A stretch of 64,000 nt of DNA from a virus. Where the stretch lies: positions 22,020 to 86,019 of the IMG/VR virus record IMGVR_UViG_3300033388_007160. One strand, given 5' to 3'. The notes under the pieces are model-generated. The model ran no database searches. It worked only from the letters and a program-made list of their open reading frames with translations, and had not been told where the DNA came from. This document shows, piece by piece, positions 34,368 through 63,227 of the stretch (position 1 is its first letter; every line of letters begins with the position of its first letter). The position numbers were made by a program, and so were the translations under genes.

Positions 34368-34955
34368 ATGAAGCTAAGTGATTGGGCCAAGCAGCAAGGC
34401 ATCAGTTATCGCACGGCATGGAGATGGTTTAGGCAAGGACGCTTGCCGTGTAGGGCTGAGCAGATGCCTTCGGGGACCATATTGGTCTATCCCGATGAGG
34501 AAACACAAACAGATGAAGCTGTAGTGATTTATGCTCGTGTTTCGTCCAGCAACCAGCGTGGAGACTTGCAGCGGCAGGTTGAACGGCTTGTGACTTACGC
34601 CAATGCTCGCGGCTGGAGAATTGCGGATATTGTCACAGAGATAGGTTCGGGCCTCAACGGTCGCCGGAAGAAGCTGTTGAAGCTGTTGGCCGACCCCAAT
34701 GTTCGCCATATCCTCGTAGAACACCGAGACCGCTTGGCCCGTTTCGGTGTTGAGTTTATAGAGGCAGCGTTGTCTGCCAGTGGCCGCAAGCTTACGGTGG
34801 TAGATGAAACAGAATTCAAAGACGACTTATGGCAGGACTTTGTGGATTTGGTTACCAGCATGGCGGTCCGCATATATGGCCGTCGAGGCGCACGAAACCG
34901 TGCGCAACGTGCTTTAGAGGCCCTGAGGCACGGCGATGACAATCTTAAGGAGTAG
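34368..34955 (+). CDS. tnpA: IS607 serine-recombinase transposase
   Basis: MKLSDWAKQQGISYRTAWRW HTH; YARVSS; EIGSGLN; EHRDRLARFG. Confidence 0.95.
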   Translation: MKLSDWAKQQGISYRTAWRWFRQGRLPCRAEQMPSGTILVYPDEETQTDEAVVIYARVSSSNQRGDLQRQVERLVTYANARGWRIADIVTEIGSGLNGRRKKLLKLLADPNVRHILVEHRDRLARFGVEFIEAALSASGRKLTVVDETEFKDDLWQDFVDLVTSMAVRIYGRRGARNRAQRALEALRHGDDNLKE

Positions 34956-36030
34956 CAAGCTTAGCTTCAAAGAAGCAACGGAAGCCAAGCTGGCTATCCT
35001 GCAGAAGATAGCTGAAGATTACCGTCGTGCCGTTAACTGGTTCATAGACTGGTATTGGCAACACGGCCTCCGCCGCTTTCCTGAAACCGAAGTAGTCAAT
35101 GCCTGTCCTGTGGATTGGTTCACTCATCGCATGAAGAAGGTGGCTGCACAGCAGGCCCTTGGTATAGTCCGCGTTGCCTGCAAGCGAGGCCGGAAAACAA
35201 AGCCTGAATATAAGCAGCTTAAGATACAAGCTCAATGCACCATTGCGCGGTTGCGGCAACCCAAAGAGGCCGAGAGCTTTGATTACTGGCTTGAGCTGCG
35301 GTGCATAGGCAACAAATTACGCTTGGACTTGCCCCTGAAAGCCAACAAACATTTCAACCGCTTCGTAGCTGAAGGCTGGAAACAGCATAGTGGACTGCTT
35401 ATTGATGTAAAGCGACGCACTGTGACGGTAGTATTCGAGAAGGATGAGAAACCTGCAGATGATACGTCACACCCCGTTGCTGTAGACATCGGGGCAAGTT
35501 CATGTCTATTTGCCTGTGCCGACTTTGCCCACGCTGGCTGTCTTGGTCTGCAGATTGGCGACCTTCTACAAAAGGTTGCGCGGAAACAACATGGCTCCAA
35601 GCGCCAGAAGAAAGCTCGACGCCGGTTGAGGCATTACATTGATGAACAAGTCAAGAACCTGCTCAAAGCTTTTCAACCTAGCTGCGTCGTGGCCGAAAGA
35701 TTGCATAACGTGCTGCAGCGAACCAAACAAGACCGTAAGCTAAATAAAGCAGTTCGCTGCCTCCTCGGTGGTTGGTGCTACCGTTACGCGCTGGAGCGGT
35801 TGCGCATGACATGCGAAGTCAACCGTGTTGGCTTCCATGTCGTGCCGCCGCAGTATACCAGCCAGCGGTGCCCAGCCTGCGGCCACATCGAGGAGTCGAA
35901 CCGCCGAGGCAGGATGTTTCGCTGTCGGCAATGTGGGTATATTGACCATGCCGACTTAGTGGCCGCCAGAAACATCCTGTGGCGGTTCACTGAGGAGATT
36001 ACCGTCCCTCAGGCGGCGGAAGCCGGTTGA
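34936..36030 (+). CDS. tnpB: TnpB RNA-guided endonuclease
   Basis: RuvC D (AVDIG), E (VAERL) and D (HADLVAARNI); CPAC/CRQC zinc finger. Confidence 0.9.
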   Translation: MTILRSSKLSFKEATEAKLAILQKIAEDYRRAVNWFIDWYWQHGLRRFPETEVVNACPVDWFTHRMKKVAAQQALGIVRVACKRGRKTKPEYKQLKIQAQCTIARLRQPKEAESFDYWLELRCIGNKLRLDLPLKANKHFNRFVAEGWKQHSGLLIDVKRRTVTVVFEKDEKPADDTSHPVAVDIGASSCLFACADFAHAGCLGLQIGDLLQKVARKQHGSKRQKKARRRLRHYIDEQVKNLLKAFQPSCVVAERLHNVLQRTKQDRKLNKAVRCLLGGWCYRYALERLRMTCEVNRVGFHVVPPQYTSQRCPACGHIEESNRRGRMFRCRQCGYIDHADLVAARNILWRFTEEITVPQAAEAG

Positions 36031-36094
36031 CAATGTTTGACCACGTAACCGGCAACGGTCAGATGAGCTTGCCATACGAAAGGAGGCTAATGAA

Positions 36095-36457
36095 ATGCAA
36101 GACTATGTATTTGTGGAATGGCATGGTAGGTTGAGGGCGTTGCTCAGAGTCTTGGCTTCAGTAGAACAAGACTTGAAGGATGTGGTGCGTCAAGCGGTAA
36201 GCTATGGCGTCGCCCCAGCCCATCAAATCCGCCGTATTGACCGTGCATTCTGGGAGATTACTGATGCTGTGTTTGAGGTCCTGGAAAACATCGCAGACCG
36301 GATTGATGGCCTCGATTTGGAGACGACCATGCAGGCCCTTGAGGCCGAGATTAAAGCCAAAGGCGTAAGCCCGAAACAAATACAGCAGGCCGCGGAAGAA
36401 GTTCGGCGCGAGGCTTACGAAGAGAAGTACGGGGAGGGGGAGGCCGGACGTGAATGA
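36095..36457 (+). CDS. Hypothetical protein
   Basis: AAAGGAGG RBS. Confidence 0.65.
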   Translation: MQDYVFVEWHGRLRALLRVLASVEQDLKDVVRQAVSYGVAPAHQIRRIDRAFWEITDAVFEVLENIADRIDGLDLETTMQALEAEIKAKGVSPKQIQQAAEEVRREAYEEKYGEGEAGRE

Positions 36458-38915: not shown

Positions 38916-39088
38916 GAAGATTGGGGGCTGATGGACGGCCCTCAAAGCAGCGGCCATTCTGGGCATGTGGCCGCTGCTTTGATTTGTATCAGGGAGGAGG
39001 CATTATCCTCGATGCCGGATATTGCTCAAACTGCGGCTTCCGACCGGCTCCGGACACTGAAGCAGAGGATACTGAACTGGGCGAATGA
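38855..39088 (+). CDS. Small zinc-ribbon protein
   Basis: CGRC...CSNC. Confidence 0.45.
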   Translation: MARRKPAYEVIKEFGEAWLVRRLGADGRPSKQRPFWACGRCFDLYQGGGIILDAGYCSNCGFRPAPDTEAEDTELGE

Positions 39089-39569
39089 AATTGTTGACCC
39101 CCAGCTTAAAGATTTCGTATTCCATTGTCTGCGCCATGCCCCTCCGGCCTTCTGGGAAATGCCCGCTTCCGCTACCGGCAGGCACCATCCGTCCGACGAA
39201 AGAGGCCCCGGTGGCCTGCTGATACACATCCTTCGCCTTCTCAGTGTGACAGATGACGCCATGCAATGGCTGAAGGCTGCCGGATATTCCGAACGCAAAT
39301 GGCGGGATTGGTGGATAGCAACCTCGATTCTTCACGACTTGCTCAGGGCCACGGAAAGATACAAGAAGCGCCACGGCCCGGAAATGGCAAAACGCATAGA
39401 AGCACGCCTCGACAGCCGTTACAGGCAACTTGCCGATGCCATCCGTAGGCATGAAGGTCCCTGGTCTGATGGCGGCCCCTCTACACGCAACTGGTTTGGC
39501 CTTCTCTTCCATATGGCAGACTTCTGGTTAACGCGAGAAAAGGTAAAGACCGACATCGAGGAAAAATAA
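39012..39569 (+). CDS. HD-domain phosphohydrolase
   Basis: PAS..GRHH, GGLLIH, LHD, HEGPW and HMAD motifs. Confidence 0.85.
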   Translation: MPDIAQTAASDRLRTLKQRILNWANEIVDPQLKDFVFHCLRHAPPAFWEMPASATGRHHPSDERGPGGLLIHILRLLSVTDDAMQWLKAAGYSERKWRDWWIATSILHDLLRATERYKKRHGPEMAKRIEARLDSRYRQLADAIRRHEGPWSDGGPSTRNWFGLLFHMADFWLTREKVKTDIEEK

Positions 39570-39594
39570 AAGCCCCACCCTTCGGGTGGGGCTT
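39562..39594 (-). terminator. Intrinsic terminator, minus strand
   Basis: 10-bp stem AGCCCCACCC/GGGTGGGGCT followed by a U-rich tract on the minus strand. Confidence 0.8.
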
Positions 39595-39987
39595 GAGCTT
39601 GAGAGGATGCCGCCTCGGTGCCTGTCCTCCGCGTTAGCCAGGCCTCGCTCGGGCTTTGACCGACGCCATCCTCCAGACGAGGTTGGGATGGGCTGCGATA
39701 ACGCAGCCCCGGTGGACTCGCTAACGCGAGTGACCACCGAAATATTCCAGCGGGCAGGCCTATGACGCGAGACGGGAAGGGGGCAGGCATAAAGCCTGTG
39801 CGAGGGGACACACGCGGGCGGCGGTGCCTGCTGCCACTAGTATATTGACTGGCTAGCGATCGGGCGCTTGGCCACGCGTCTCACGGATTGGCCGAGCATC
39901 GCCCAAGAAGCTATTGAAGCTGGGCTTTAACTCCCTTTGCATTTGTCGCCAAAGGCCTGCCCGCCTTTACTCGCTGTCAGAGTTCGC
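39595..39987. ncRNA. ~400-nt highly structured non-coding element of unknown class
   Basis: No credible ORF; many hairpins; 12-bp long-range helix 39750-61/39953-64; bounded by a minus-strand promoter and terminator. Confidence 0.65.
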
Positions 39988-39993
39988 ACGAAC

Positions 39994-40022
39994 AGTATAC
40001 CCACAATGCTACTCATTCAAAC
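39994..40022 (-). promoter_or_regulatory. Repeated phage promoter motif
   Basis: GTTTGA-N14-GGGTATACT. Confidence 0.65.
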
Positions 40023-41555
40023 CTGTCGCATTGATACTTGCTGGCCCAAGGCTGTATACGTGCGCCATCTTTCTTCGCTGTGCTTTTCAAGGACGCCATC
40101 GTCCTCGTCCCAGAAATCTATAACTTGGGCAAAGGGCTTGCCGGGGGCTATGCGAAGGCTTCGGCCAAGGCGTTGCTGTTGACGGCCATGAGCCTTGCCC
40201 CCAGCGGCCATAATCAGCACGTCAATCGTCGGCACGTTGAACCCCAAGTCCACCACTGGCGTGCCAATCAGGATTTTGTTGGTGGCAATGAATTCGTCTT
40301 TGATTTCTTGGGCCTTCTGGGCGGACATGCCGCCGTGCAAGAAGAGACAATTTTCACGTCCCAGATATTCATCCATCAGCAGGTTGGCATGTTCTTCCCA
40401 ATTGACGATGATAAGCACCTTCCGGCCTTTGCTTTGGTGGTAGAGGGCTTCGGTTGCAATGTGGAGGTTTCTTTCTGTGTTGTAGGCGATGCCATACCGA
40501 TACTTCTCAGCCCAAGAACCTGCTACGGGCAGGCACCGGACTGGTATGAATTCCACACGGGCTTCGGATAAATAACCTTCGTCCTGGAGTTCACGTGTGG
40601 GCTTTCGGGCCAGGATAGGGCCGGTTACAGCATGTAGCTTCATCGTTTCCCCATAGCCTTCTTCGCGGCTGGCCGTGGCCGTTTGGCCGAATCGATAGTA
40701 AGCGTCTACAGTCATCAGGTAATCAAACCACGTATCGGCAGCGGATTTGTGATGTTCGTCCACGATAATCAAGTCCACTTCGCGGGCCAGTTTGCCTCCA
40801 CGTGCAGGGTCTCTGGCCCATCCTTCGTCAAAGATGGCAAGTGTTACCCAGTCTGGCTCGAATTTGCCTTTCGCGATAATGCCCAGTGGCACGTCGGGGC
40901 AGTATTCGGGCCAGCGGGATTTGAATTCATTGAAAATCGGTGTTGTGGGAACGATTATCAGGGTTCGCAGCCCCAAACGAGCAATAATCTCGATGGCAAT
41001 TTCCGTCTTGCCGCCGCCTGTTGCCACTTCAATAATGCCCCGCTCAGCTTCAATGGCAGCCTGCACGATTTCTTCTTGGTAATCGCGTAGCCTGATAGTC
41101 GTCCGCCAGGGGCGAGCTTCGCCAGGTTTGCGTCTTTCATCTACGATTTCAGCGCCTTGGGTAAGATGGGAGATATAAAAGAGCAGCCCTGTGGGCACAG
41201 CCTTCCGCCGCCGGTCGAGAAAATGTATCCGGTGATCCCACTGGCAACGCCAGCAGTCTGGAAACAGGCTGGCCGCTTCTTCATGGCTGAATTTCTTGCG
41301 TCGTTTGACTTTCTGAATGAGCCTCTGGCATTGCCGTCGCAACCACCGAACGCTATCATAGCGGGCTTCAAGGCCGGGCCGTCCGGCCAGTCGGGCTTCT
41401 TCATCCATTAGTTCTTGCAAATGCTTCTCAAGGTGCCGTGCCAGAATCCACTTCGCATTAGGAATTTCAAAAGACAGACATTCATCAATGGCTCTGAGTT
41501 CTTCGTCAGTGGCTTCCTCAATTTGCGTCCAAGTGTTGGATATCCTCAGCCTCAA
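40017..41555 (-). CDS. Superfamily 2 DNA helicase (UvsW/XPB-like)
   Basis: LRDYQ, ATGGGKT, DEHH, TAT and QRLGRSLR motifs. Confidence 0.92.
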   Translation of the reverse strand: MRLRISNTWTQIEEATDEELRAIDECLSFEIPNAKWILARHLEKHLQELMDEEARLAGRPGLEARYDSVRWLRRQCQRLIQKVKRRKKFSHEEAASLFPDCWRCQWDHRIHFLDRRRKAVPTGLLFYISHLTQGAEIVDERRKPGEARPWRTTIRLRDYQEEIVQAAIEAERGIIEVATGGGKTEIAIEIIARLGLRTLIIVPTTPIFNEFKSRWPEYCPDVPLGIIAKGKFEPDWVTLAIFDEGWARDPARGGKLAREVDLIIVDEHHKSAADTWFDYLMTVDAYYRFGQTATASREEGYGETMKLHAVTGPILARKPTRELQDEGYLSEARVEFIPVRCLPVAGSWAEKYRYGIAYNTERNLHIATEALYHQSKGRKVLIIVNWEEHANLLMDEYLGRENCLFLHGGMSAQKAQEIKDEFIATNKILIGTPVVDLGFNVPTIDVLIMAAGGKAHGRQQQRLGRSLRIAPGKPFAQVIDFWDEDDGVLEKHSEERWRTYTALGQQVSMRQV

Positions 41556-46274: not shown

Positions 46275-46356
46275 TGGTGGACGCGCCCGGGAATCGAACC
46301 CGGGTACCAAGCGCTGCACACCGGCCTTAGCGCTTGGTCGAACCTATTCTGCGCCC
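46275..46356 (-). ncRNA. Mini tmRNA-like RNA, tRNA-like domain only (copy 1)
   Basis: GGGCGC acceptor stem with G3.U70; GGTTCGAC D-region; 9-bp helix; TTCGATT T-loop; ACCA end; no anticodon arm. Confidence 0.75.
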
Positions 46357-49380: not shown

Positions 49381-49409
49381 ATTATACCCACTCGCGCCGG
49401 GTGCTAAAC
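49381..49409 (-). promoter_or_regulatory. Repeated phage promoter motif, leftward operon
   Basis: GTTTAG-N14-GGGTATAAT. Confidence 0.7.
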
Positions 49410-49417
49410 ATGTTTTG

Positions 49418-49928
49418 TGTAACAACCTTGTTACATCCGGCGCCCGGCGCCAGTAATGCGCCTGCGCTCACCCAAAGCGCCGCTGCGGCGCAGCGCCTTT
49501 AGCGGCTTGTCACAATTGCCAAGCATTCGCAACAGCCAAGACTGTGTTACTGCAAATCGTGGGCAATAACGCAGGCCAAGCAGCTACTGCTGATTTGGGC
49601 CAAGCCCGGCCCAAGGCCTGAAGCTTAGCCTTGGACCTTCAGGCCTGGCCTTCGGCCTAGCCTTTATCGGCCTCCATTATATATATGTGCCAGTCGGGCC
49701 GGATTTAAACCTGCTGGGCCAGAAAATTTTCGGCTTTTCGGGCCGGGGCCTTGGGCCTGGCTTGAGGCGGGCCAGTCGGGCTGAGGCAGCCGGGCCGAGC
49801 CATATTGGGCTTGGCTGGCCAGGCCGAGCCAGCAAAGGCCGGGGCAATCGGGCTTGGGCCGGATCGGGCCGGGGCCTTCGGGCCGGATTAGGCCGAAGGC
49901 CGGGGCCGGATGTAACAACATGTTTACA
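49418..49928. repeat. Inverted repeats/operator-like palindromes enclosing a GGCC-saturated block
   Basis: TTGTTACATCCGGC (49428-41) is the reverse complement of 49905-18; palindrome TGTAACAAccTTGTTACA at 49418-35. Confidence 0.75.
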
Positions 49929-49964
49929 TCAGCATGTTTCGGGCCGGTTTAGGGTAGACTGGTC

Positions 49965-49994
49965 TTGACAGCCATTAGCGTGATATGCTATACT
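49965..49994 (+). promoter_or_regulatory. sigma70-type promoter
   Basis: TTGACA-N18-TATACT with extended TG. Confidence 0.7.
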
Positions 49995-50047: not shown

Positions 50048-50266
50048 ATGTCTGAGAAACTCTACGAACTGGCCTGCCAACAGGCCGGGCCGGAGTTTGC
50101 GGAGTTAGTGCAGGATATTGCAATTGCAGTCCTTGACGAAATGGCCGCGGACGAACATGACCCAGAATGGCAGAAGGCCTTCAGCATTAACCGGGCCTTG
50201 AACTGGCTGAAGGCCAAGCGGGCCGTTGAGAAACTGGCTGCAGCATGGAAACAGGCTGAATCCTAA
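50048..50266 (+). CDS. Hypothetical protein
   Basis: GGAGGTGAG RBS. Confidence 0.6.
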   Translation: MSEKLYELACQQAGPEFAELVQDIAIAVLDEMAADEHDPEWQKAFSINRALNWLKAKRAVEKLAAAWKQAES

Positions 50267-50281
50267 GGGGAGGTGAGTCCA

Positions 50282-50908
50282 ATGTCAGTAACCTTTGACG
50301 TATGGCCTTGGGCCGACAAGCTAATGCTTCAATTGGGCTTGGCCAGCCAGGCCAAACTGGTCAGGCTGGCCAGGTGGGCCAGCCAGGCCTTGAAAGCCAA
50401 GCCCAAGTATGAGTATCGGGCCTATAAAGCTGATATCAAGGCCGAAGGCCCGGCCTTCAAGCTTGTGTGGATGGAAAAGCCTTCCGGGCCTTGCTGGCTT
50501 ATCTGGGCCAAGCCCAAGCAAGCTTGGGCCTGGCCTATGTGGACTGAAGGCTGCATCATCGAGCGTCAAGGCCGCTTGTGGCTGCAGGCCCGCGGGCTTG
50601 GCATGATTGAGATTGATAGCATAAGCCAAGCTATTCATATCCTTCTGGCCCGGCCCGGCCTTGGGCCTGCTGAGGCCCCGGCCTACAAGGCCGAGCCAGA
50701 TAACGGCAGGCCGGATCGGGCCATTGTCACAACCCTTGAAGGCAGCCAGATAACCTACTACTACAAGCCCGAACCGGGCTACTGGGCCAGGCAGACTTTG
50801 CAAGACAAGGCCCTGGCCCGAGCCTGGCCCAAGGTAGTTTCATCATATCGGGCTTTGATGAGGCTTGCCAGGGAAAAGCAGGCCCAAGTCAAGCGGGCCT
50901 TTGACTAA
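50282..50908 (+). CDS. Hypothetical protein with GGCC-rich coding sequence
   Basis: GGAGGTGAG RBS; followed by a terminator. Confidence 0.6.
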   Translation: MSVTFDVWPWADKLMLQLGLASQAKLVRLARWASQALKAKPKYEYRAYKADIKAEGPAFKLVWMEKPSGPCWLIWAKPKQAWAWPMWTEGCIIERQGRLWLQARGLGMIEIDSISQAIHILLARPGLGPAEAPAYKAEPDNGRPDRAIVTTLEGSQITYYYKPEPGYWARQTLQDKALARAWPKVVSSYRALMRLAREKQAQVKRAFD

Positions 50909-50920
50909 CAAACCCTCTTC

Positions 50921-50960
50921 GGGCCGGGCCAGCAGCATATCGGCCCGGCCCTTCTTTTTT
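50921..50960 (+). terminator. Intrinsic terminator
   Basis: GGGCCGGGCC/GGCCCGGCCC stem plus TTCTTTTTT. Confidence 0.75.
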
Positions 50961-51054: not shown

Positions 51055-51233
51055 CCCCTCCCAACACCCATAAAGTTTGACATATGTCGTCCCCTCCCAA
51101 CACCCGTGAAGCCCGACATATGTCATCCTCCCCCAACATCCACGAAATCCGATATATGTCACCTCCCTCCCCAATGCTCACAAAAGCTTGGGCGTATGTC
51201 GCCTTAGCACTCACGAAGTCTGATATATGTTAT
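51055..51233. repeat. Degenerate ~36-bp tandem repeats, about 5 copies, iteron-like
   Basis: GA(C/T)ATATGTC-like core at 51079, 51115, 51151, 51191 and 51222. Confidence 0.85.
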
Positions 51234-51314
51234 GCCTGTGTTTGCTGGCTGTAGGGGATGGTGGGGAGTTTTGGTTCAACCGGGCTTCGCCGGGGGAGAA
51301 GGGAAGAGGTTGGG

Positions 51315-51365
51315 CCCTAGCTACCTATAGGATAAAACTACGTTTTATCCTATAGGTAGCTAGGG
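51315..51365. repeat. Perfect 24-bp inverted repeat with 3-nt centre
   Basis: CCCTAGCTACCTATAGGATAAAAC-TAC-GTTTTATCCTATAGGTAGCTAGGG. Confidence 0.95.
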
Positions 51366-51510
51366 TTGCCTCGCATGTTACTTTGTTGATAATTGCCGTC
51401 GGCGAATGGTATAAAGCAGGGCGTTTGTGGTAGGATGCGGCAGGATGTGGTAGGTTGTGTGGGTGGGAAGGGGCCGAAGTTGATACTTCCCTATGGGGAG
51501 AAGGTTATAG

Positions 51511-51539
51511 GTTTGAAAGGGCCTGGGCCGGGGCATACT
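51511..51539 (+). promoter_or_regulatory. Repeated phage promoter motif
   Basis: GTTTGA-N14-GGGCATACT. Confidence 0.5.
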
Positions 51540-51566
51540 TAAAACAAAAAAGGAGCGGGATAGGCG

Positions 51567-51872
51567 ATGGCCGGTGAGAAACCCCTGTGGCATATGGAGC
51601 TTATCGTTACGACGAAGGAGGAAGTTAGGCTGGATGGGCGGGCCTGCCCGGCGGCTGGCATCCTCGCTCTGTGGTTTGAACAGGGCAAGGACTGTGTGCT
51701 TTATATCCCCGTGAAGATGCTGGAGGACATGTTCGGGGCCTGCCCGGATGTGCTGGATGTGGCCATCTCCGGCAAGGCTCATCTGGATGGCACATATACC
51801 TTCGTTACGGTGCAGGCGGACGAAGGAGGGGAACTGGCGGTTTACGCTCAGGGCCCGATAGCTCGGTCATAA
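51567..51872 (+). CDS. Hypothetical protein
   Basis: AAGGAG RBS. Confidence 0.6.
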   Translation: MAGEKPLWHMELIVTTKEEVRLDGRACPAAGILALWFEQGKDCVLYIPVKMLEDMFGACPDVLDVAISGKAHLDGTYTFVTVQADEGGELAVYAQGPIARS

Positions 51873-52537: not shown

Positions 52538-52612
52538 TGGTGGCCCCGACGGGATTCGAACCCGTGTTACCGCCTTGAAAGAGCGGCGTCCTAGCCACTA
52601 GACGACAGGGCC
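52538..52612 (-). tRNA. tRNA-Glu (UUC)
   Basis: Full cloverleaf; anticodon loop CTTTCAA; GGTTCGAATCC; encoded CCA. Confidence 0.95.
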
Positions 52613-52621
52613 ACCATCGGC

Positions 52622-54124
52622 TTATTCGAGGACAGGCCCTTCTGGCCCTTCCCAGTTTTCGATCACATCAACCAACTTATCCCAAACGAGGATGACCTTG
52701 AAGATGTTATCATTGAAGCCGCCGATGTCAAGAATGCGTGGATTCTGCGGCAGGTCGCTGGTGCCGTATGGGGCCAAGCAGACATTGACTACCCGAAGCT
52801 CCGGATTAAGGCCCAGAAGCTTTTTGATAGCCTCCCCCGCGTAGCCCCAGCTACCTGGCAACCAGGACTGCTCATCCGTAAGTATCACCACATAGTCAAG
52901 CTGGTTAGCATAGGCTGCTACCTTCTCAATGGCCTCGGCCAAATTGGTGCCACCGCCATCAACGTAAATCTGCTTGAAGATGTCATATGTTCGACTGGAG
53001 CGGCTGACTTTGCATTGTTGGGCCCCAGTGCCATAGCTGATTATCACGCCATTCTGAGCCTTCTTGAACGCTGCAGCAGCAAACAATCGGGCCACATCAA
53101 CCCGGCTGACCATTGACCTTGCACTCAAGAAGCCCAACATGCTGCCGCTCGTATCCACAAGCACACCTACACGGCCCAGTGAAGGCACATTGTCTGTTGC
53201 TATTTCTATGGCTTCAATCAGGGCGTCTTCGGCTTCCTGCTTGGCAGCCAAACTGATGTTCTCGTCTTCCAACTGCTGCACGCTTGCCAAGGCAGCCAGG
53301 AAACGGAACGGCATAATCTTGGGATGTCGGGCTGCTGCCAGAACTTTTTCTCTGTCAATTGGCACATTATGTTTAAGCAAGTTGCGCAGGTTGCGAATAT
53401 AAGCCATGGGCGGCATGATTTCAGCAGCCCTCATCCAAGTCTCATGGTTGCTGCCATAAGCGCTGATAAGAGATTCCCAAGTGGTGGCCTTGCCTTCCGC
53501 GTGGGCCTTAATCTCCTCAGGCGTATCTTCACCAACCTTGCCGGTTACAATCCACCTGAATGCGGCGGCCTGGGCTGCATCCTTGGGCTTCGGGTGAATA
53601 ACGTTCAGCACATCAACAAGGCTCCATTCGCGAGTTTTGCCACGATATTTGATAATCTCATACGGCGTCAAAGCTTGTAGCCTCTTGGCAATTGCTCTTC
53701 GCAGGGCCATAGGGATGGGGCCGCCATATACCTCTTTATATATAGCCAGTACTTCAGCGGGTTCATCGGCCCGTGCCATGATAACCGGCCCCCACTTGGC
53801 AACCCATGGCTTAGGTGCACATTCGTGGACTGGGTGCCCTGCCATCACAGCCAGCAAGAACTGCGGGGCCGTCCTCATGCCAAGTTCATGACGCAGCCAT
53901 GCAGCCAGCTTCAGCACGAATTCGGGGTCTTTGGTCCCAACTTCCAGCGCCAGATTCTTGATGGCCTCAGTGACTTCATGTTTGGTTGCGTAGAAGGTAT
54001 CTTCAAAGAAGTGTGTGGCACACCGCAGTGCCAGCTCCAGCTTGGGTGGATACTTGTAGGCCGGAGCCCCTTCATAGTTGACTGTCTTGCCTGCAGCCCG
54101 CTTAGGCTTGTTGAACTTAGCCAT
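52622..54124 (-). CDS. Ro60/Rsr TROVE-vWA RNA-binding protein
   Basis: NYEGAPAY; FVLKLAAWLRHELGMR; RADE; DVLNVIHPKP; TWES.IS; MAYIRNLRN; PFRF; vWA DTSGSM, GGTN and LTDEQ. Confidence 0.93.
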   Translation of the reverse strand: MAKFNKPKRAAGKTVNYEGAPAYKYPPKLELALRCATHFFEDTFYATKHEVTEAIKNLALEVGTKDPEFVLKLAAWLRHELGMRTAPQFLLAVMAGHPVHECAPKPWVAKWGPVIMARADEPAEVLAIYKEVYGGPIPMALRRAIAKRLQALTPYEIIKYRGKTREWSLVDVLNVIHPKPKDAAQAAAFRWIVTGKVGEDTPEEIKAHAEGKATTWESLISAYGSNHETWMRAAEIMPPMAYIRNLRNLLKHNVPIDREKVLAAARHPKIMPFRFLAALASVQQLEDENISLAAKQEAEDALIEAIEIATDNVPSLGRVGVLVDTSGSMLGFLSARSMVSRVDVARLFAAAAFKKAQNGVIISYGTGAQQCKVSRSSRTYDIFKQIYVDGGGTNLAEAIEKVAAYANQLDYVVILTDEQSWLPGSWGYAGEAIKKLLGLNPELRVVNVCLAPYGTSDLPQNPRILDIGGFNDNIFKVILVWDKLVDVIENWEGPEGPVLE

Positions 54125-54143
54125 CGAAATTCGTCCTCCTTTC

Positions 54144-54182
54144 AAAATAAAAAGCGCCGTCCCGCACGATGCGAGACGACGC
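54144..54182 (-). terminator. Intrinsic terminator/attenuator immediately upstream of the Ro60 RBS
   Basis: GCGUCGUCUCGCA-UCG-UGCGGGACGGCGC, 13 bp with 2 G.U, plus UUUUUAUUUU. Confidence 0.85.
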
Positions 54183-54219
54183 CCCGTCTATGGGCTGAGA
54201 GCCCGGAGGTTGAATGCTA

Positions 54220-54293
54220 TTGGCACGAGAATAACGACAACGGCACGGTTCAGCTCCAAAGGCTGAAGTAACCGTTGTCTCGCATCGTGCCAA
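54220..54293 (-). ncRNA. Y-RNA-like element, proximal
   Basis: Ends pair (GGCACGA/UCGUGCC); internal loop UGCGA; helix GACAACGG/CCGUUGUC; GGUUACUUC motif shared with the distal copy; adjacent to Ro60. Confidence 0.75.
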
Positions 54294-54318
54294 ACTTCTT
54301 TTGAATTTTCAAGGTTGA

Positions 54319-54416
54319 GCGCGTAGAGTATATTGGTTGCGGTACTTTTTCCAGCCGCCTCAATGGCGGAACCGGATTTCGAGTCCGGAAGTAACCGCAA
54401 CCTCGCAGCTACGCGC
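54319..54416 (-). ncRNA. Y-RNA-like element, distal, YrlA-like
   Basis: GCGCGUAG/CUACGCGC; UGCGA; GGUUGCGG/CCGCAACC; T-arm-like CCGGA-CUCGAAA-UCCGG; 5' end 7 nt from a -10 box. Confidence 0.8.
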
Positions 54417-54422
54417 AGGTTT

Positions 54423-54451
54423 AGTATACCACAATGCAGGCAATTCTAAAC
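54423..54451 (-). promoter_or_regulatory. Promoter of the Y RNA-Ro60-tRNA operon
   Basis: GTTTAG-N14-TGGTATACT. Confidence 0.75.
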
Positions 54452-54465
54452 ACTGGTGAAGCAAA

Positions 54466-55086
54466 GTGCTGGCTATAATCAGTTTGGCTCTGTCTTTAGC
54501 CCAAGCGCCCAACTTGGCACTCATCTACCATACCGACAGGCTTTTCAGTTACCGCCTCGTGGCCGACCGGCCCCTGCCCAAAGGCAGCCTGCTTATCCTT
54601 ATTACTAAGAGTCCCCTGCAGGCCACCGGCCCCGCTTTGAGCTGGAAGAAAACGATTTACTTCGGCAGCATTGCTGCTTGGCGAAAGACAGACGAACGAA
54701 TCAGACGTTATTACCAGTCATTCGACGTAACGACGTGCTATCCGGCCAGGCTGGGCAAGATTTTCTGGGTTCTTGCCACACCTTCTGGTTGTTGGTGGGG
54801 CGTTTGCTGGGGGCCATGCAGTCCGATGCGGTATAATAGTTTTGGGCACGCGAGTGGGCTCGGCGGCGGGGAGAGCCGATGTGCGCCCCGCTGCACGCGG
54901 GTTCGAATCCCGCCGTGTCCACCAGCGTTCAAGTTTGTGAACAGGCCCAGCAGGGTAAACTCTCCACGAAATGAAGAGGAAGGTTCAGCGAATCATCAAT
55001 GCCCTCAACCGCTGGTGGGAACTGCGCCGGTTCCCCGAGAGGCTGAAGTATCAACGTTTTCTGGAGCGCAATCTCTTCAATCTTGA
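54466..55086 (+). CDS. Possible secreted protein; true 3' end probably before ~54830
   Basis: Signal-peptide-like N-terminus; C-terminal part overlaps an RNA gene and the next ORF. Confidence 0.3.
   Translation: MLAIISLALSLAQAPNLALIYHTDRLFSYRLVADRPLPKGSLLILITKSPLQATGPALSWKKTIYFGSIAAWRKTDERIRRYYQSFDVTTCYPARLGKIFWVLATPSGCWWGVCWGPCSPMRYNSFGHASGLGGGESRCAPRCTRVRIPPCPPAFKFVNRPSRVNSPRNEEEGSANHQCPQPLVGTAPVPREAEVSTFSGAQSLQS
54844..54924 (+). ncRNA. Mini tmRNA-like RNA, tRNA-like domain only (copy 2)
   Basis: GGGCACG/CGTGTCC acceptor with G3.U70; no D-stem; 8-bp helix; GCGGG-TTCGAAT-CCCGC; ACCA; TATAAT at 54832-37. Confidence 0.8.
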
Positions 55087-61166: not shown

Positions 61167-61765
61167 ACGAAGAAGAACGCCGCAAGCAACTATTCATCCG
61201 CTGGGCCGCTGAAGGCCGAGAGGCGGGCGAGATAGTTGACTTGGCCCGTGAGATAGGTTGGGATTTGACCGAACGCAGGGTTCGCACCCTGCGCAAGAAG
61301 TATCGCCAAGAGATAATCAAGTATGCCCACGAGAAGACACAGGAATTGATGAGCAAGATTGAGCGGGCGGCCAAACCCCTGCGAGTTCAAAAAGTTGACG
61401 AGATAGCTGCCCGACTTGAAGATGCCCTCGATGAATTGCTTGGTGAAGAATGGTCAACGCCCAAGCAGAGAATGGAGGCCATCCGGATTGCGGCCAAGAT
61501 TGCCGATACTCTCATGAAAGCTTACAGACTTATAGCCGAGGAGACACATGATTTGACAAAGCCTGCTCAATCAATTAACTTCTACGTGCAGATACTACAG
61601 CAGGCACCACCGGAGGTTCGGCAGGAAGTTGTTCAAAAACTTGAAGAACTGCAGAGTCTGCTGCGTGCCACTCAGCAAACAGGAACTGAGGCCATAGATG
61701 CCGAATTCGTCACTGAACCCGAACCTGCCTCTAGAAGAGGTAGCGAAACGGCTATCTCAGATTGA
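61130..61765 (+). CDS. Probable terminase small subunit
   Basis: N-terminal HTH-like segment; helical; directly upstream of TerL. Confidence 0.6.
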   Translation: MEGTPVKAIHPLDEEERRKQLFIRWAAEGREAGEIVDLAREIGWDLTERRVRTLRKKYRQEIIKYAHEKTQELMSKIERAAKPLRVQKVDEIAARLEDALDELLGEEWSTPKQRMEAIRIAAKIADTLMKAYRLIAEETHDLTKPAQSINFYVQILQQAPPEVRQEVVQKLEELQSLLRATQQTGTEAIDAEFVTEPEPASRRGSETAISD

Positions 61766-63227
61766 GGAAGCTCTTCGTTTTGCCAAAATCCAGCAGGCTC
61801 GCGAGGATATAGTTGCTTTTGCAGAGTATGTAATGCGGGATGAGCAGGGCCGCCCTTGGAAAGTCCCCGAACATCAGAAAGAGTGGTTTCAGCTTCTCCT
61901 TAATCCCTCAATAGACAGGCTCCTCATCATAGCTCCCCGTTTGCATGGCAAAACCCAGACAATCGTCTGTTTTTTGCTCTACATGATTGGCAAGAACCCC
62001 AACATTAGCATCAAATACGTGTGCGGGGACGATGAGCTTGCCATTGATATTTTCTTGCAAATCAAACGTAACATCTTGGAGAACCCACACTATCGAGAGG
62101 TGTTCCCACACATAGAACTCGATGAAGAAGCTGAGGAGACCAAGCACAAGCTTACAGTCAAGCGGGATGCTGCCCTCGGTATTAAAGACCCGACGCTGCA
62201 GGCCTTTAGTGTTACGGCGTCGGGAACTGGCCGTCGTGCCCATATCATCATTTTCGACGACATCATAGGCGCTCGCTTTGCCACACAACCCCGCATGATA
62301 CCCAAGATTCAGTATATTGTTGAAAACGACTGGATGAATACGCTTTATGAGAATGGACGGGCCATTATGATAGGCACTTACTGGTCTTGGGACCCGCCAG
62401 ACATTTATGTGGAATACGCCCAGAATGAGCGCTGGTATAAATGGGAGAAACCCGCCATCATCTACGACGAAGATGGCAATCCCCGGCCTCTCTGGCCGGA
62501 ACGCTGGTCGCTTGAAAAGCTTGAACAGAAACGCAAGGAAAGCCCCGTGGCCTTCGCCCAGCAGTTCATGCTGCAGGGTATGCTGCGGAAAACCGATTAC
62601 TTCAGCGAAGAGAACATCGAAAAATGCATACGCACCGACATTGCGCTTGGTGAAGGTTGGGAAGAAGGCTGGCCGGTTTACATCGGCGTGGACCCTGCTG
62701 CTTCGCTTGGCAAGGAAGGCTCATATAGCGTGATATTTGTCATTGCTGTTTCGCCACAGGGTGTAAGGGTGCCTGTTGAAATCATCCGCGACAAGATGGG
62801 GCCGGAAGAACTTGCCCGTCGGATAGTTGCTCTGTGGCGTCGGTATAAACCCCAGCTTGTGCTTGTGGAGAATAACAGTTACCAGGCTGCCCTTGTGGAT
62901 TTGATACGTGTAATAGCACAAAACGAACCGATTACGGTCAAGGGCCAATTCACCGGCAGCCAGAAATGGTCGCCTGATGAAGGCCTGCCTCGCCTTCACG
63001 CTGAAATGGCAAATCGCATGTGGATTATCCCACGCAAACAGTGTTTGCATCATGCCGACGACCCGACTTGCGTAGTATGCCAGTGGCTAAAGGAAATGCG
63101 GGAGTTTCCTTATGGACAAACTTCTGATATTATTATGGCGATGTGGCTTGCAGATACAGCGGCCACCACGTCAATGACATTTGGTGAAGTGCCGATAGTG
63201 GCGGCCAAACGGAGGCGAAGACTCTGA
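61698..63227 (+). CDS. terL: Terminase large subunit
   Basis: APRLHGKT, TGRRAH.IIFDD, GVDPA, VENN.YQ and SDIIMA motifs. Confidence 0.93.
   Translation: MPNSSLNPNLPLEEVAKRLSQIEEALRFAKIQQAREDIVAFAEYVMRDEQGRPWKVPEHQKEWFQLLLNPSIDRLLIIAPRLHGKTQTIVCFLLYMIGKNPNISIKYVCGDDELAIDIFLQIKRNILENPHYREVFPHIELDEEAEETKHKLTVKRDAALGIKDPTLQAFSVTASGTGRRAHIIIFDDIIGARFATQPRMIPKIQYIVENDWMNTLYENGRAIMIGTYWSWDPPDIYVEYAQNERWYKWEKPAIIYDEDGNPRPLWPERWSLEKLEQKRKESPVAFAQQFMLQGMLRKTDYFSEENIEKCIRTDIALGEGWEEGWPVYIGVDPAASLGKEGSYSVIFVIAVSPQGVRVPVEIIRDKMGPEELARRIVALWRRYKPQLVLVENNSYQAALVDLIRVIAQNEPITVKGQFTGSQKWSPDEGLPRLHAEMANRMWIIPRKQCLHHADDPTCVVCQWLKEMREFPYGQTSDIIMAMWLADTAATTSMTFGEVPIVAAKRRRRL

Follow-up and report, generated by a model that had tools for sequence, protein, structure and literature searches.

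The window analysed here is a stretch of 64,000 nt that covers bases 22020-86019 of an 86,019-bp IMG/VR virus record; the record has direct terminal repeats and is rated complete, and it represents an uncultured phage of hydrothermal sediment with a genome of 86 kb. In this window, a plus-strand and a minus-strand block of genes converge, and the genes that face each other are separated by a gap of 447 bp (39570-40016; Table 1). No other non-coding stretch of the genome is as long, judging from a crude ORF map, and the phage otherwise packs its genes tightly. The initial annotation of the DNA had described the gap as free of ORFs and situated between converging operons, and this description is borne out: the ORFs found in or across the gap are short (59-130 aa) or implausible, none of them has a Pfam match at E up to 1, and the longest one runs across the terminator into the converging gene. 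The GC content of the element that fills the gap is 62%, compared with the genome mean of 53%.

The element is bracketed by a promoter motif (39994-40022) and a terminator, both on the minus strand, as had been reported; we found both of them again. In the promoter, the -35-like hexamer GTTTGA (40022-40017) overlaps the stop codon of the helicase gene, and the extended -10 element GGTATACT lies at 40001-39994. This promoter belongs to a class, GTTTR-N16/17-GGTATACT, that has five copies with fixed spacing, at 40001, 45810, 46244, 52514, and 54430. Each of them lies upstream of a gene or RNA gene in the 40-55 kb block, on the minus strand, and the copy at 54430 precedes the operon of Ro60 and Y-like RNAs described below and is read as driving it. 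On the plus strand, no promoter-like site is present within the gap.

The terminator of the minus strand consists of the hairpin 39594-39570 and the adjoining TTATTTTT, and it abuts the stop codon of the converging plus-strand gene; no other terminator-like site was found in 39000-40600. On its plus-strand side, the same hairpin is followed by UUGAGCUUG only, which is not a good U tail. The plus-strand operon is thus without a good terminator, and therefore plus-strand read-through RNA may also exist. There is no terminator between the helicase gene and the element either; therefore, read-through from upstream should also carry the element, as the 3' UTR of the operon mRNA. For the promoter in the gap itself, we infer a transcript that would start ~7 nt after the -10 element, a position derived from the consensus only, and would end in the U tract. 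The stretch hence has a promoter of its own, identified as a consensus match, a terminator on the same strand, and no coding capacity, the three features looked for in a gene of non-coding RNA.

Table 1. Genes, transcription signals, and predicted structural features at the gap (window coordinates)
Feature	Position	Strand	Description or basis
Last gene of the long plus-strand block	38931-39569	+	phrog_5889, weak HD-domain match
Intrinsic terminator	39560-39594	-	11-bp stem (8 G-C), 3-nt loop, then UUUUAUUUUU
Predicted primary transcript, ~425 nt	39563-39987	-	positions of promoter and terminator
Less well-defined 3' domain, competing pairings	39595-39689	-	MFE folds, inverted repeats
8-bp hairpin GGGCTGCG-ATAA-CGCAGCCC	39690-39709	-	MFE folds of both strands
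Two-tier hairpin, CGGTGG/CCACCG around ACTCGC-TAAC-GCGAGT	39710-39739	-	MFE folds, inverted repeats
Core multi-branch domain	39750-39964	-	closed by perfect 12-bp helix 39750-61/39953-64
Part of the core that folds differently on the two strands	39782-39853	-	MFE folds
Long arm inside the core, 14-nt apical loop	39854-39913	-	MFE folds of both strands
Small hairpin in the core, 4 bp, 3-nt loop	39917-39927	-	MFE folds of both strands
Promoter	39994-40022	-	GTTTGA-N15-GGTATACT; consensus match only
SF2 helicase (ResIII + Helicase_C), last protein gene of the minus-strand block	40017-41555	-	flanks the element

The helices previously listed for the gap all exist. The 12-bp closing helix, the hairpins 39690-39709 and 39710-39739, the arm 39854-39913, and the small hairpin 39917-27 are present in the MFE folds of both strands and among the inverted repeats. 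The closing helix of the core is extended by the pairings 39763-64/39950-51 and 39777-81/39933-37, and according to the inverted-repeat search its 12 bp sit within 32-nt arms that are 75% complementary. The long arm is made of the pairings 39854-57/39910-13, 39862-68/39895-39904, and 39870-74/39889-93. The part of the core preceding it in window order forms a 7-bp helix (39783-89/39825-31) on the minus strand and three local hairpins on the plus strand. Three 6-nt palindromes, ACTAGT, GCTAGC, and CGATCG, are found at 39836-39863. The 3' domain has several competing pairings, namely 39603-12/39664-73, 39667-72/39686-91, and 39630-38 with 39720-28. The last of these had been proposed as a pseudoknot. 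Its 9-bp complementarity is real, with ~0.4 matches of this length expected by chance in 450 nt by our estimate, but it overlaps the stem of the hairpin 39716-31 and therefore competes with that hairpin instead of forming a clean pseudoknot.

The folds of both strands are far more stable than those of shuffled controls, with z-scores against dinucleotide shuffles from -4.3 to -7.7. For 39595-40000, the z-scores are -5.4 on the plus strand and -4.3 on the minus strand; for the span from the promoter to the terminator, -6.4 and -4.9, respectively; and for the core with the adjacent hairpins (39690-39970), -6.8 and -7.7. The MFE of the whole element is -213 kcal/mol on the plus strand vs. -201 kcal/mol on the minus strand. 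We also scanned the genome in 613 overlapping windows of 280 nt, with MFE regressed on GC. When aligned on the closing helix, the core window lies beyond all 613 windows on the plus strand and beyond all but one on the minus strand, which puts the core near the top of the 86-kb genome for structure in windows of this size. The Ro60 leader and the TnpB gene's 3' end (see below) are picked out as well, which serves as a sanity check of the scan. The z-scores and the lack of Pfam matches among the ORFs of the gap support the original description of a large, strongly structured non-coding element.

The initial annotation had further stated that nearly all non-canonical pairs of the element are G.U on the plus strand, which seemed at odds with transcription signals on the minus strand. 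This could not be reproduced, as the MFE folds contain 11 G.U pairs on the plus strand and 9 on the minus strand. Wobble-type mismatches beside or inside the helices common to both folds comprise five of the plus type and three of the minus type. By our reading, the 32-nt arms of the closing helix contribute two wobble positions of each type, and three plus-type and one minus-type wobbles lie alongside the other shared helices. A 5:3 split carries no signal, and neither strand stands out by its z-scores; the supposed strand paradox is not borne out and should be dropped. The only natural variant seen, T39672C, comes from one contig with a depth of 2.5 and falls in the 3' domain. On the minus strand, where it reads as A to G, it turns A-U into G.U in both candidate helices, and on the plus strand it yields C.A. 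This is weak evidence, because a transition within a helix always suits one strand and not the other; it amounts to one coin flip, and the variant may be an assembly error.

Two explanations had been offered for the supposed paradox, and neither is sustained. A plus-strand RNA with a dedicated antisense partner was one of them; the only promoter and intrinsic terminator on either side of the element are those of the minus strand, so a plain minus-strand RNA suffices without a plus-strand partner. The other one was a structure acting in single-stranded DNA or cDNA, for which we looked for an RVT_1 reverse transcriptase (PF00078); it is absent from the complete 86-kb genome, while the same search was positive in three control genomes. 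A retron or a cDNA template is rejected on this ground.

To compare the element with known families, we searched both strands of the gap against Rfam 15 (4227 families), at gathering thresholds and then at E up to 10. At gathering thresholds, no family matched on either strand. At E up to 10, there were only matches of at most 20 bits, all far below gathering and nearly all on the terminator hairpin. The earlier failure to match the element to RNase P, SRP, 6S, tmRNA, or introns thus extends to all 4227 Rfam families. Membership in GOLLD, ROOL, HEARO, or Y RNA is rejected, as none of these models matches in the gap at E up to 10. We also rejected tmRNA, whether whole, in two pieces, or as the message part: no family of the tmRNA clan matches, and no tag-like peptide, defined as a reading frame ending in a hydrophobic Ala-rich tail, occurs in the six frames. 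As for Y RNA, the element lies ~12.6 kb from the Ro60 gene (52622-54145), no Y RNA family matches up to E 10, and no Ro-binding stem was found. The 9-mer CAATATACT, common to the element and the Ro60 leader, is at chance level by our estimate, and the motif that would partner it lies on the other strand. Complementarity of the element to the phage genome, searched for antisense targets, is likewise at chance level only.

No homologue of the element was found in any search; the searched sets left out records very near the phage's genome. Blastn against 50,697 phage records gave no match, scans of IMG/VR for exact words (15- to 19-mers of the element) gave chance matches only, and nhmmer against ~1.1 Mb of loci found nothing. 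We also scanned IMG/VR, JGI metagenomes, and GTDB genomes with the flanking proteins and with the terminase. Scans with single flanking proteins yielded nothing. Alignment of the helicase retrieved 80 IMG/VR and 25 JGI loci with identity of at most 48%, and in the two closest kinds of relative that we inspected, no comparable gap follows the helicase gene. Alignment of the terminase retrieved four fragments with 55% identity and one contig with 98% identity, which belongs to a metagenome-assembled genome (MAG) from Guaymas Basin; the element is in none of the five. The nearest related phage contig, which is half complete, has helicase and terminase identities of 48% and 47%, respectively; its genes around the helicase are ordered differently, and its assembled half contains no comparable gap. 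Finally, searches with DNA and with a covariance model extended to the related records and to 151 genomes of the phylum of this MAG. The model (R1), built for the 281-nt core of only the helices common to both strands, was applied to 11 records and to these genomes; it retrieved only itself and one 16.7-bit match inside an ORF, which we took as noise. From the negative searches, the element is rare in the searched data but need not be unique.

None of the sequencing runs listed for the stretch is an RNA run; one DNA run, from a hydrothermal vent metagenome, contains a 193-nt piece of the element that is nearly identical. Together with the 98%-identical terminase in the Guaymas MAG, this places the habitat of the phage in hydrothermal sediment. 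The near-identical metagenome contig, of 215 nt, leaves the window sequence after 39830 for 23 unrelated bases, which reflects either a strain with a different core interior or an assembly artefact.

The contig with the 98%-identical copy of the window's terminase (61698-63227), QMZP01000012.1, has been binned into a MAG labelled Candidatus Aenigmatarchaeota, a DPANN archaeon. The phage itself has signals of the bacterial type, namely sigma-70-like promoters and intrinsic terminators, and bacterial-type genes encoding a DnaG-DnaB primase-helicase, a beta-clamp-like protein, and RNase HII. Promoters, terminators, tmRNA mimics, and DnaB/DnaG point to a bacterium as the host. Because the signals and genes of the phage are bacterial, the archaeal bin is probably an artefact caused by contamination with phage contigs. 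Homologues of RNase HII, considered as a host clue, included no informative taxon.

The phage carries several other RNA genes in addition to the element. The Ro60 locus (52538-54451, minus strand) has a promoter of the GGTATACT class and encodes a Ro60/Rsr orthologue (52622-54145, minus strand; TROVE 3.4e-14, vWA_Ro60 9.5e-8, phrog_850). Its leader holds two Y-like hairpin RNAs that share UGCGAG and GGUUACUUC, and an attenuator-like terminator at 54185-54151. A gene for tRNA-Glu(UUC) with an encoded CCA lies 9 nt after the Ro60 stop codon. At 54844-54924 on the plus strand, there is an 81-nt tag-less mini-tmRNA with a score of 51.1 bits against the Rfam tmRNA model (gathering 47); it is comprised of the acceptor stem, one hairpin, the T arm, and CCA, and is not called by ARAGORN. 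A second, diverged copy, with a TATAAT-type promoter ahead of it, is at 46275-46356 on the minus strand.

Mobile DNA and other structured regions were also observed. A serine resolvase gene (34368-34955) overlaps a TnpB-like gene with the Cas12f TNB domain (34936-36030), both on the plus strand, and the two belong to an IS607-like insertion at 34368-36100 (plus strand). Few stretches of the genome are as structured as 35802-36081, in line with what the scaffold of a TnpB guide RNA should show. Between two diverging operons, the gene-poor region 49400-49960, with GC content of 63-72%, is packed with repeats of the GGGCC/GGCCGG type and flanked by inverted motifs containing AACATGTT. It is followed by a near-consensus promoter, TTGACA-18-TATACT, at 49965, and is the most structured stretch in the 280-nt genome scan. 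We consider it a candidate replication origin or control region.

Taken as a whole, the features of the gap make it somewhat more probable than not that the stretch is a stand-alone gene for a structured non-coding RNA of ~425 nt, encoded on the minus strand of a bacterial virus. This reading starts from what is directly seen, namely the transcription signals, the absence of coding potential, and exceptionally stable helices that are partly independent of the strand. Transcription would start ~7 nt after the phage-class promoter overlapping the helicase stop codon and would stop at the strong intrinsic terminator, immediately next to the stop codon of the converging gene. The folded RNA would consist of a multi-branch core closed by the 12-bp helix, two stable hairpins, and a looser 3' domain before the terminator, and the same sequence would also form the 3' end of the mRNA of the leftward helicase operon. 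Our guess at its role is a trans-acting scaffold, which would bind protein, or a decoy, alongside the other RNA genes of the phage. The element, Ro60 with the Y-like RNAs, the two tag-less mini-tmRNAs, and tRNA-Glu could then contribute jointly to a takeover of host RNA metabolism. Expression, the transcript ends, and the trans-acting role are what we infer from these features, and any function is conjecture. A more specific possibility, to which we assign a low probability, is that the element founds a new class of large phage RNAs. It might then work with the phage's RNA toolkit, for example as a scaffold for proteins or a decoy by which host RNA surveillance or ribosome rescue is diverted. 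Alternatively, it could be a self-assembling ornate RNA in which the palindromic hexamers at 39836-39863 make RNA-RNA contacts.

Four other explanations have to be weighed against the stand-alone RNA gene, and we list them in order of decreasing probability. The element could act in cis only, as a structured 3' untranslated end of the helicase operon that serves as an exonuclease block and insulator, the promoter being incidental. Operon transcripts must indeed cross the element to reach the hairpin 39594-39570, as there is no terminator after the helicase stop codon, and the element is located exactly where the two blocks converge. Still, ~420 nt with a closed multi-branch core go far beyond the needs of a terminator, the promoter comes from the five-copy class with fixed spacing and sits exactly at the gene end, and the gap is, by the crude ORF map, the largest non-coding one in a tightly packed phage. 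This makes a purely cis-acting element unlikely, if the least unlikely of the four. Next comes the proposal that the functional molecule is a plus-strand read-through RNA and the minus-strand transcript its antisense regulator. The lower MFE and the better z-score of the whole element (-6.4 vs. -4.9), the 5:3 excess of plus-type wobbles beside the shared helices, and the hairpin 39570-94, whose plus-strand side has no good U tail, making read-through plausible, would all be consistent with it. However, no promoter or terminator brackets the element on the plus strand, the G.U counts are 11 vs. 9, the z-score of the core favours the minus strand (-7.7 vs. -6.8), T39672C breaks a pair on the plus strand, and such an RNA would continue antisense into the helicase gene. 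We therefore regard a functional plus-strand RNA as doubtful.

The remaining two explanations are weaker. The stretch might act as DNA, being a replication origin, a recombination or packaging site, a miniature inverted-repeat insertion (MITE), or a template of single-stranded DNA or cDNA. The 12-bp perfect inverted repeat, set in 32-nt imperfect arms, bounds a unit of 215 bp, and the IS607-like element shows that mobile DNA enters this phage. The stretch is nevertheless not an obvious origin: iterons are absent (there are only short repeats in two copies), as is an AT-rich region (GC is 62%), and the repeat-dense region 49400-49960 is a much better candidate for an origin or control region. 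Inverted repeats are a feature of MITEs, but the repeat flanks have no target-site duplication and neither the repeat nor the 215-bp unit has a second copy in the phage genome; a MITE is unlikely, although the host genome might hold copies. The genome also lacks the reverse transcriptase that cDNA synthesis would call for, and altogether we find a DNA element quite improbable. Slightly below it we place a non-functional remnant, such as a decayed gene or a recombination scar, whose fold would be a by-product of GC-rich palindromic sequence. No relatives have been found and no function has been assigned, and the closest related contig (48% identity of the helicase) differs in gene order and has no comparable gap in its assembled half, all of which a remnant would account for. 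On the other hand, chance would hardly produce z-scores from -5 to -8 against dinucleotide shuffles together with a top rank in the genome, the bracketing promoter and terminator are intact, and no frame has similarity to proteins.

Phages are already known to carry orphan structured RNAs that have a promoter and a terminator of their own, and the element matches no catalogued family. Cryo-EM structures are known for large ornate RNAs of phages and prophages such as GOLLD and ROOL (PMC12286853). The element resembles GOLLD and ROOL in being a large (several hundred nt), multi-branched non-coding RNA candidate that is borne by a phage and has no adjacent regulated gene; it differs in matching no Rfam model at E up to 10 and in being known here from the predicted fold of one sequence. 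It is also shorter than RNAs of the GOLLD/ROOL type. Bacterial and phage Y RNAs (YrlA/YrlB) are partners of Ro60/Rsr. The phage encodes a Ro60 orthologue, and the promoter of the element is of the same class as that of the Ro60 operon, whereas the element is 12.6 kb away from Ro60, ~425 nt long, and multi-branched, and the Ro60 leader already holds two Y-like RNAs. Bacterial small RNAs of the MicL/DapZ type stand alone or are embedded in 3' UTRs, having an internal promoter and using the terminator of the operon. Like them, the element has a promoter at the end of the upstream gene, shares the operon terminator, and has no ORF, but it is several times longer and far more structured, and its complementarity to the phage genome does not exceed chance. 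Retron msr-msd is the known system closest to the earlier cDNA idea, as inverted repeats of ~12 nt bound the structured unit of the element similarly to the a1/a2 repeats. Unlike in retrons, no reverse transcriptase is encoded next to the element or elsewhere in the genome, and both neighbouring genes face it.

Large structured RNAs of phages are few and mostly without an assigned function, and they have lately been shown to form surprising architectures. A new RNA of this kind, in a phage that devotes so much of its coding to RNA mimicry through Ro60 with Y RNAs and mini-tmRNAs, would be a candidate for phage manipulation of host RNA quality control. The case consists of one sequence, and is a good lead rather than an established RNA family.

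Two further regions of the window have unusually stable folds on both strands. One of them, 50222-50921, is located inside a putative ORF (50273-50908) with no Pfam match, and the other, 51202-51481, covers the gap 51175-51377 and the start of the ORF 51378-51782. These regions could be further RNA elements or repeat-rich coding sequence.
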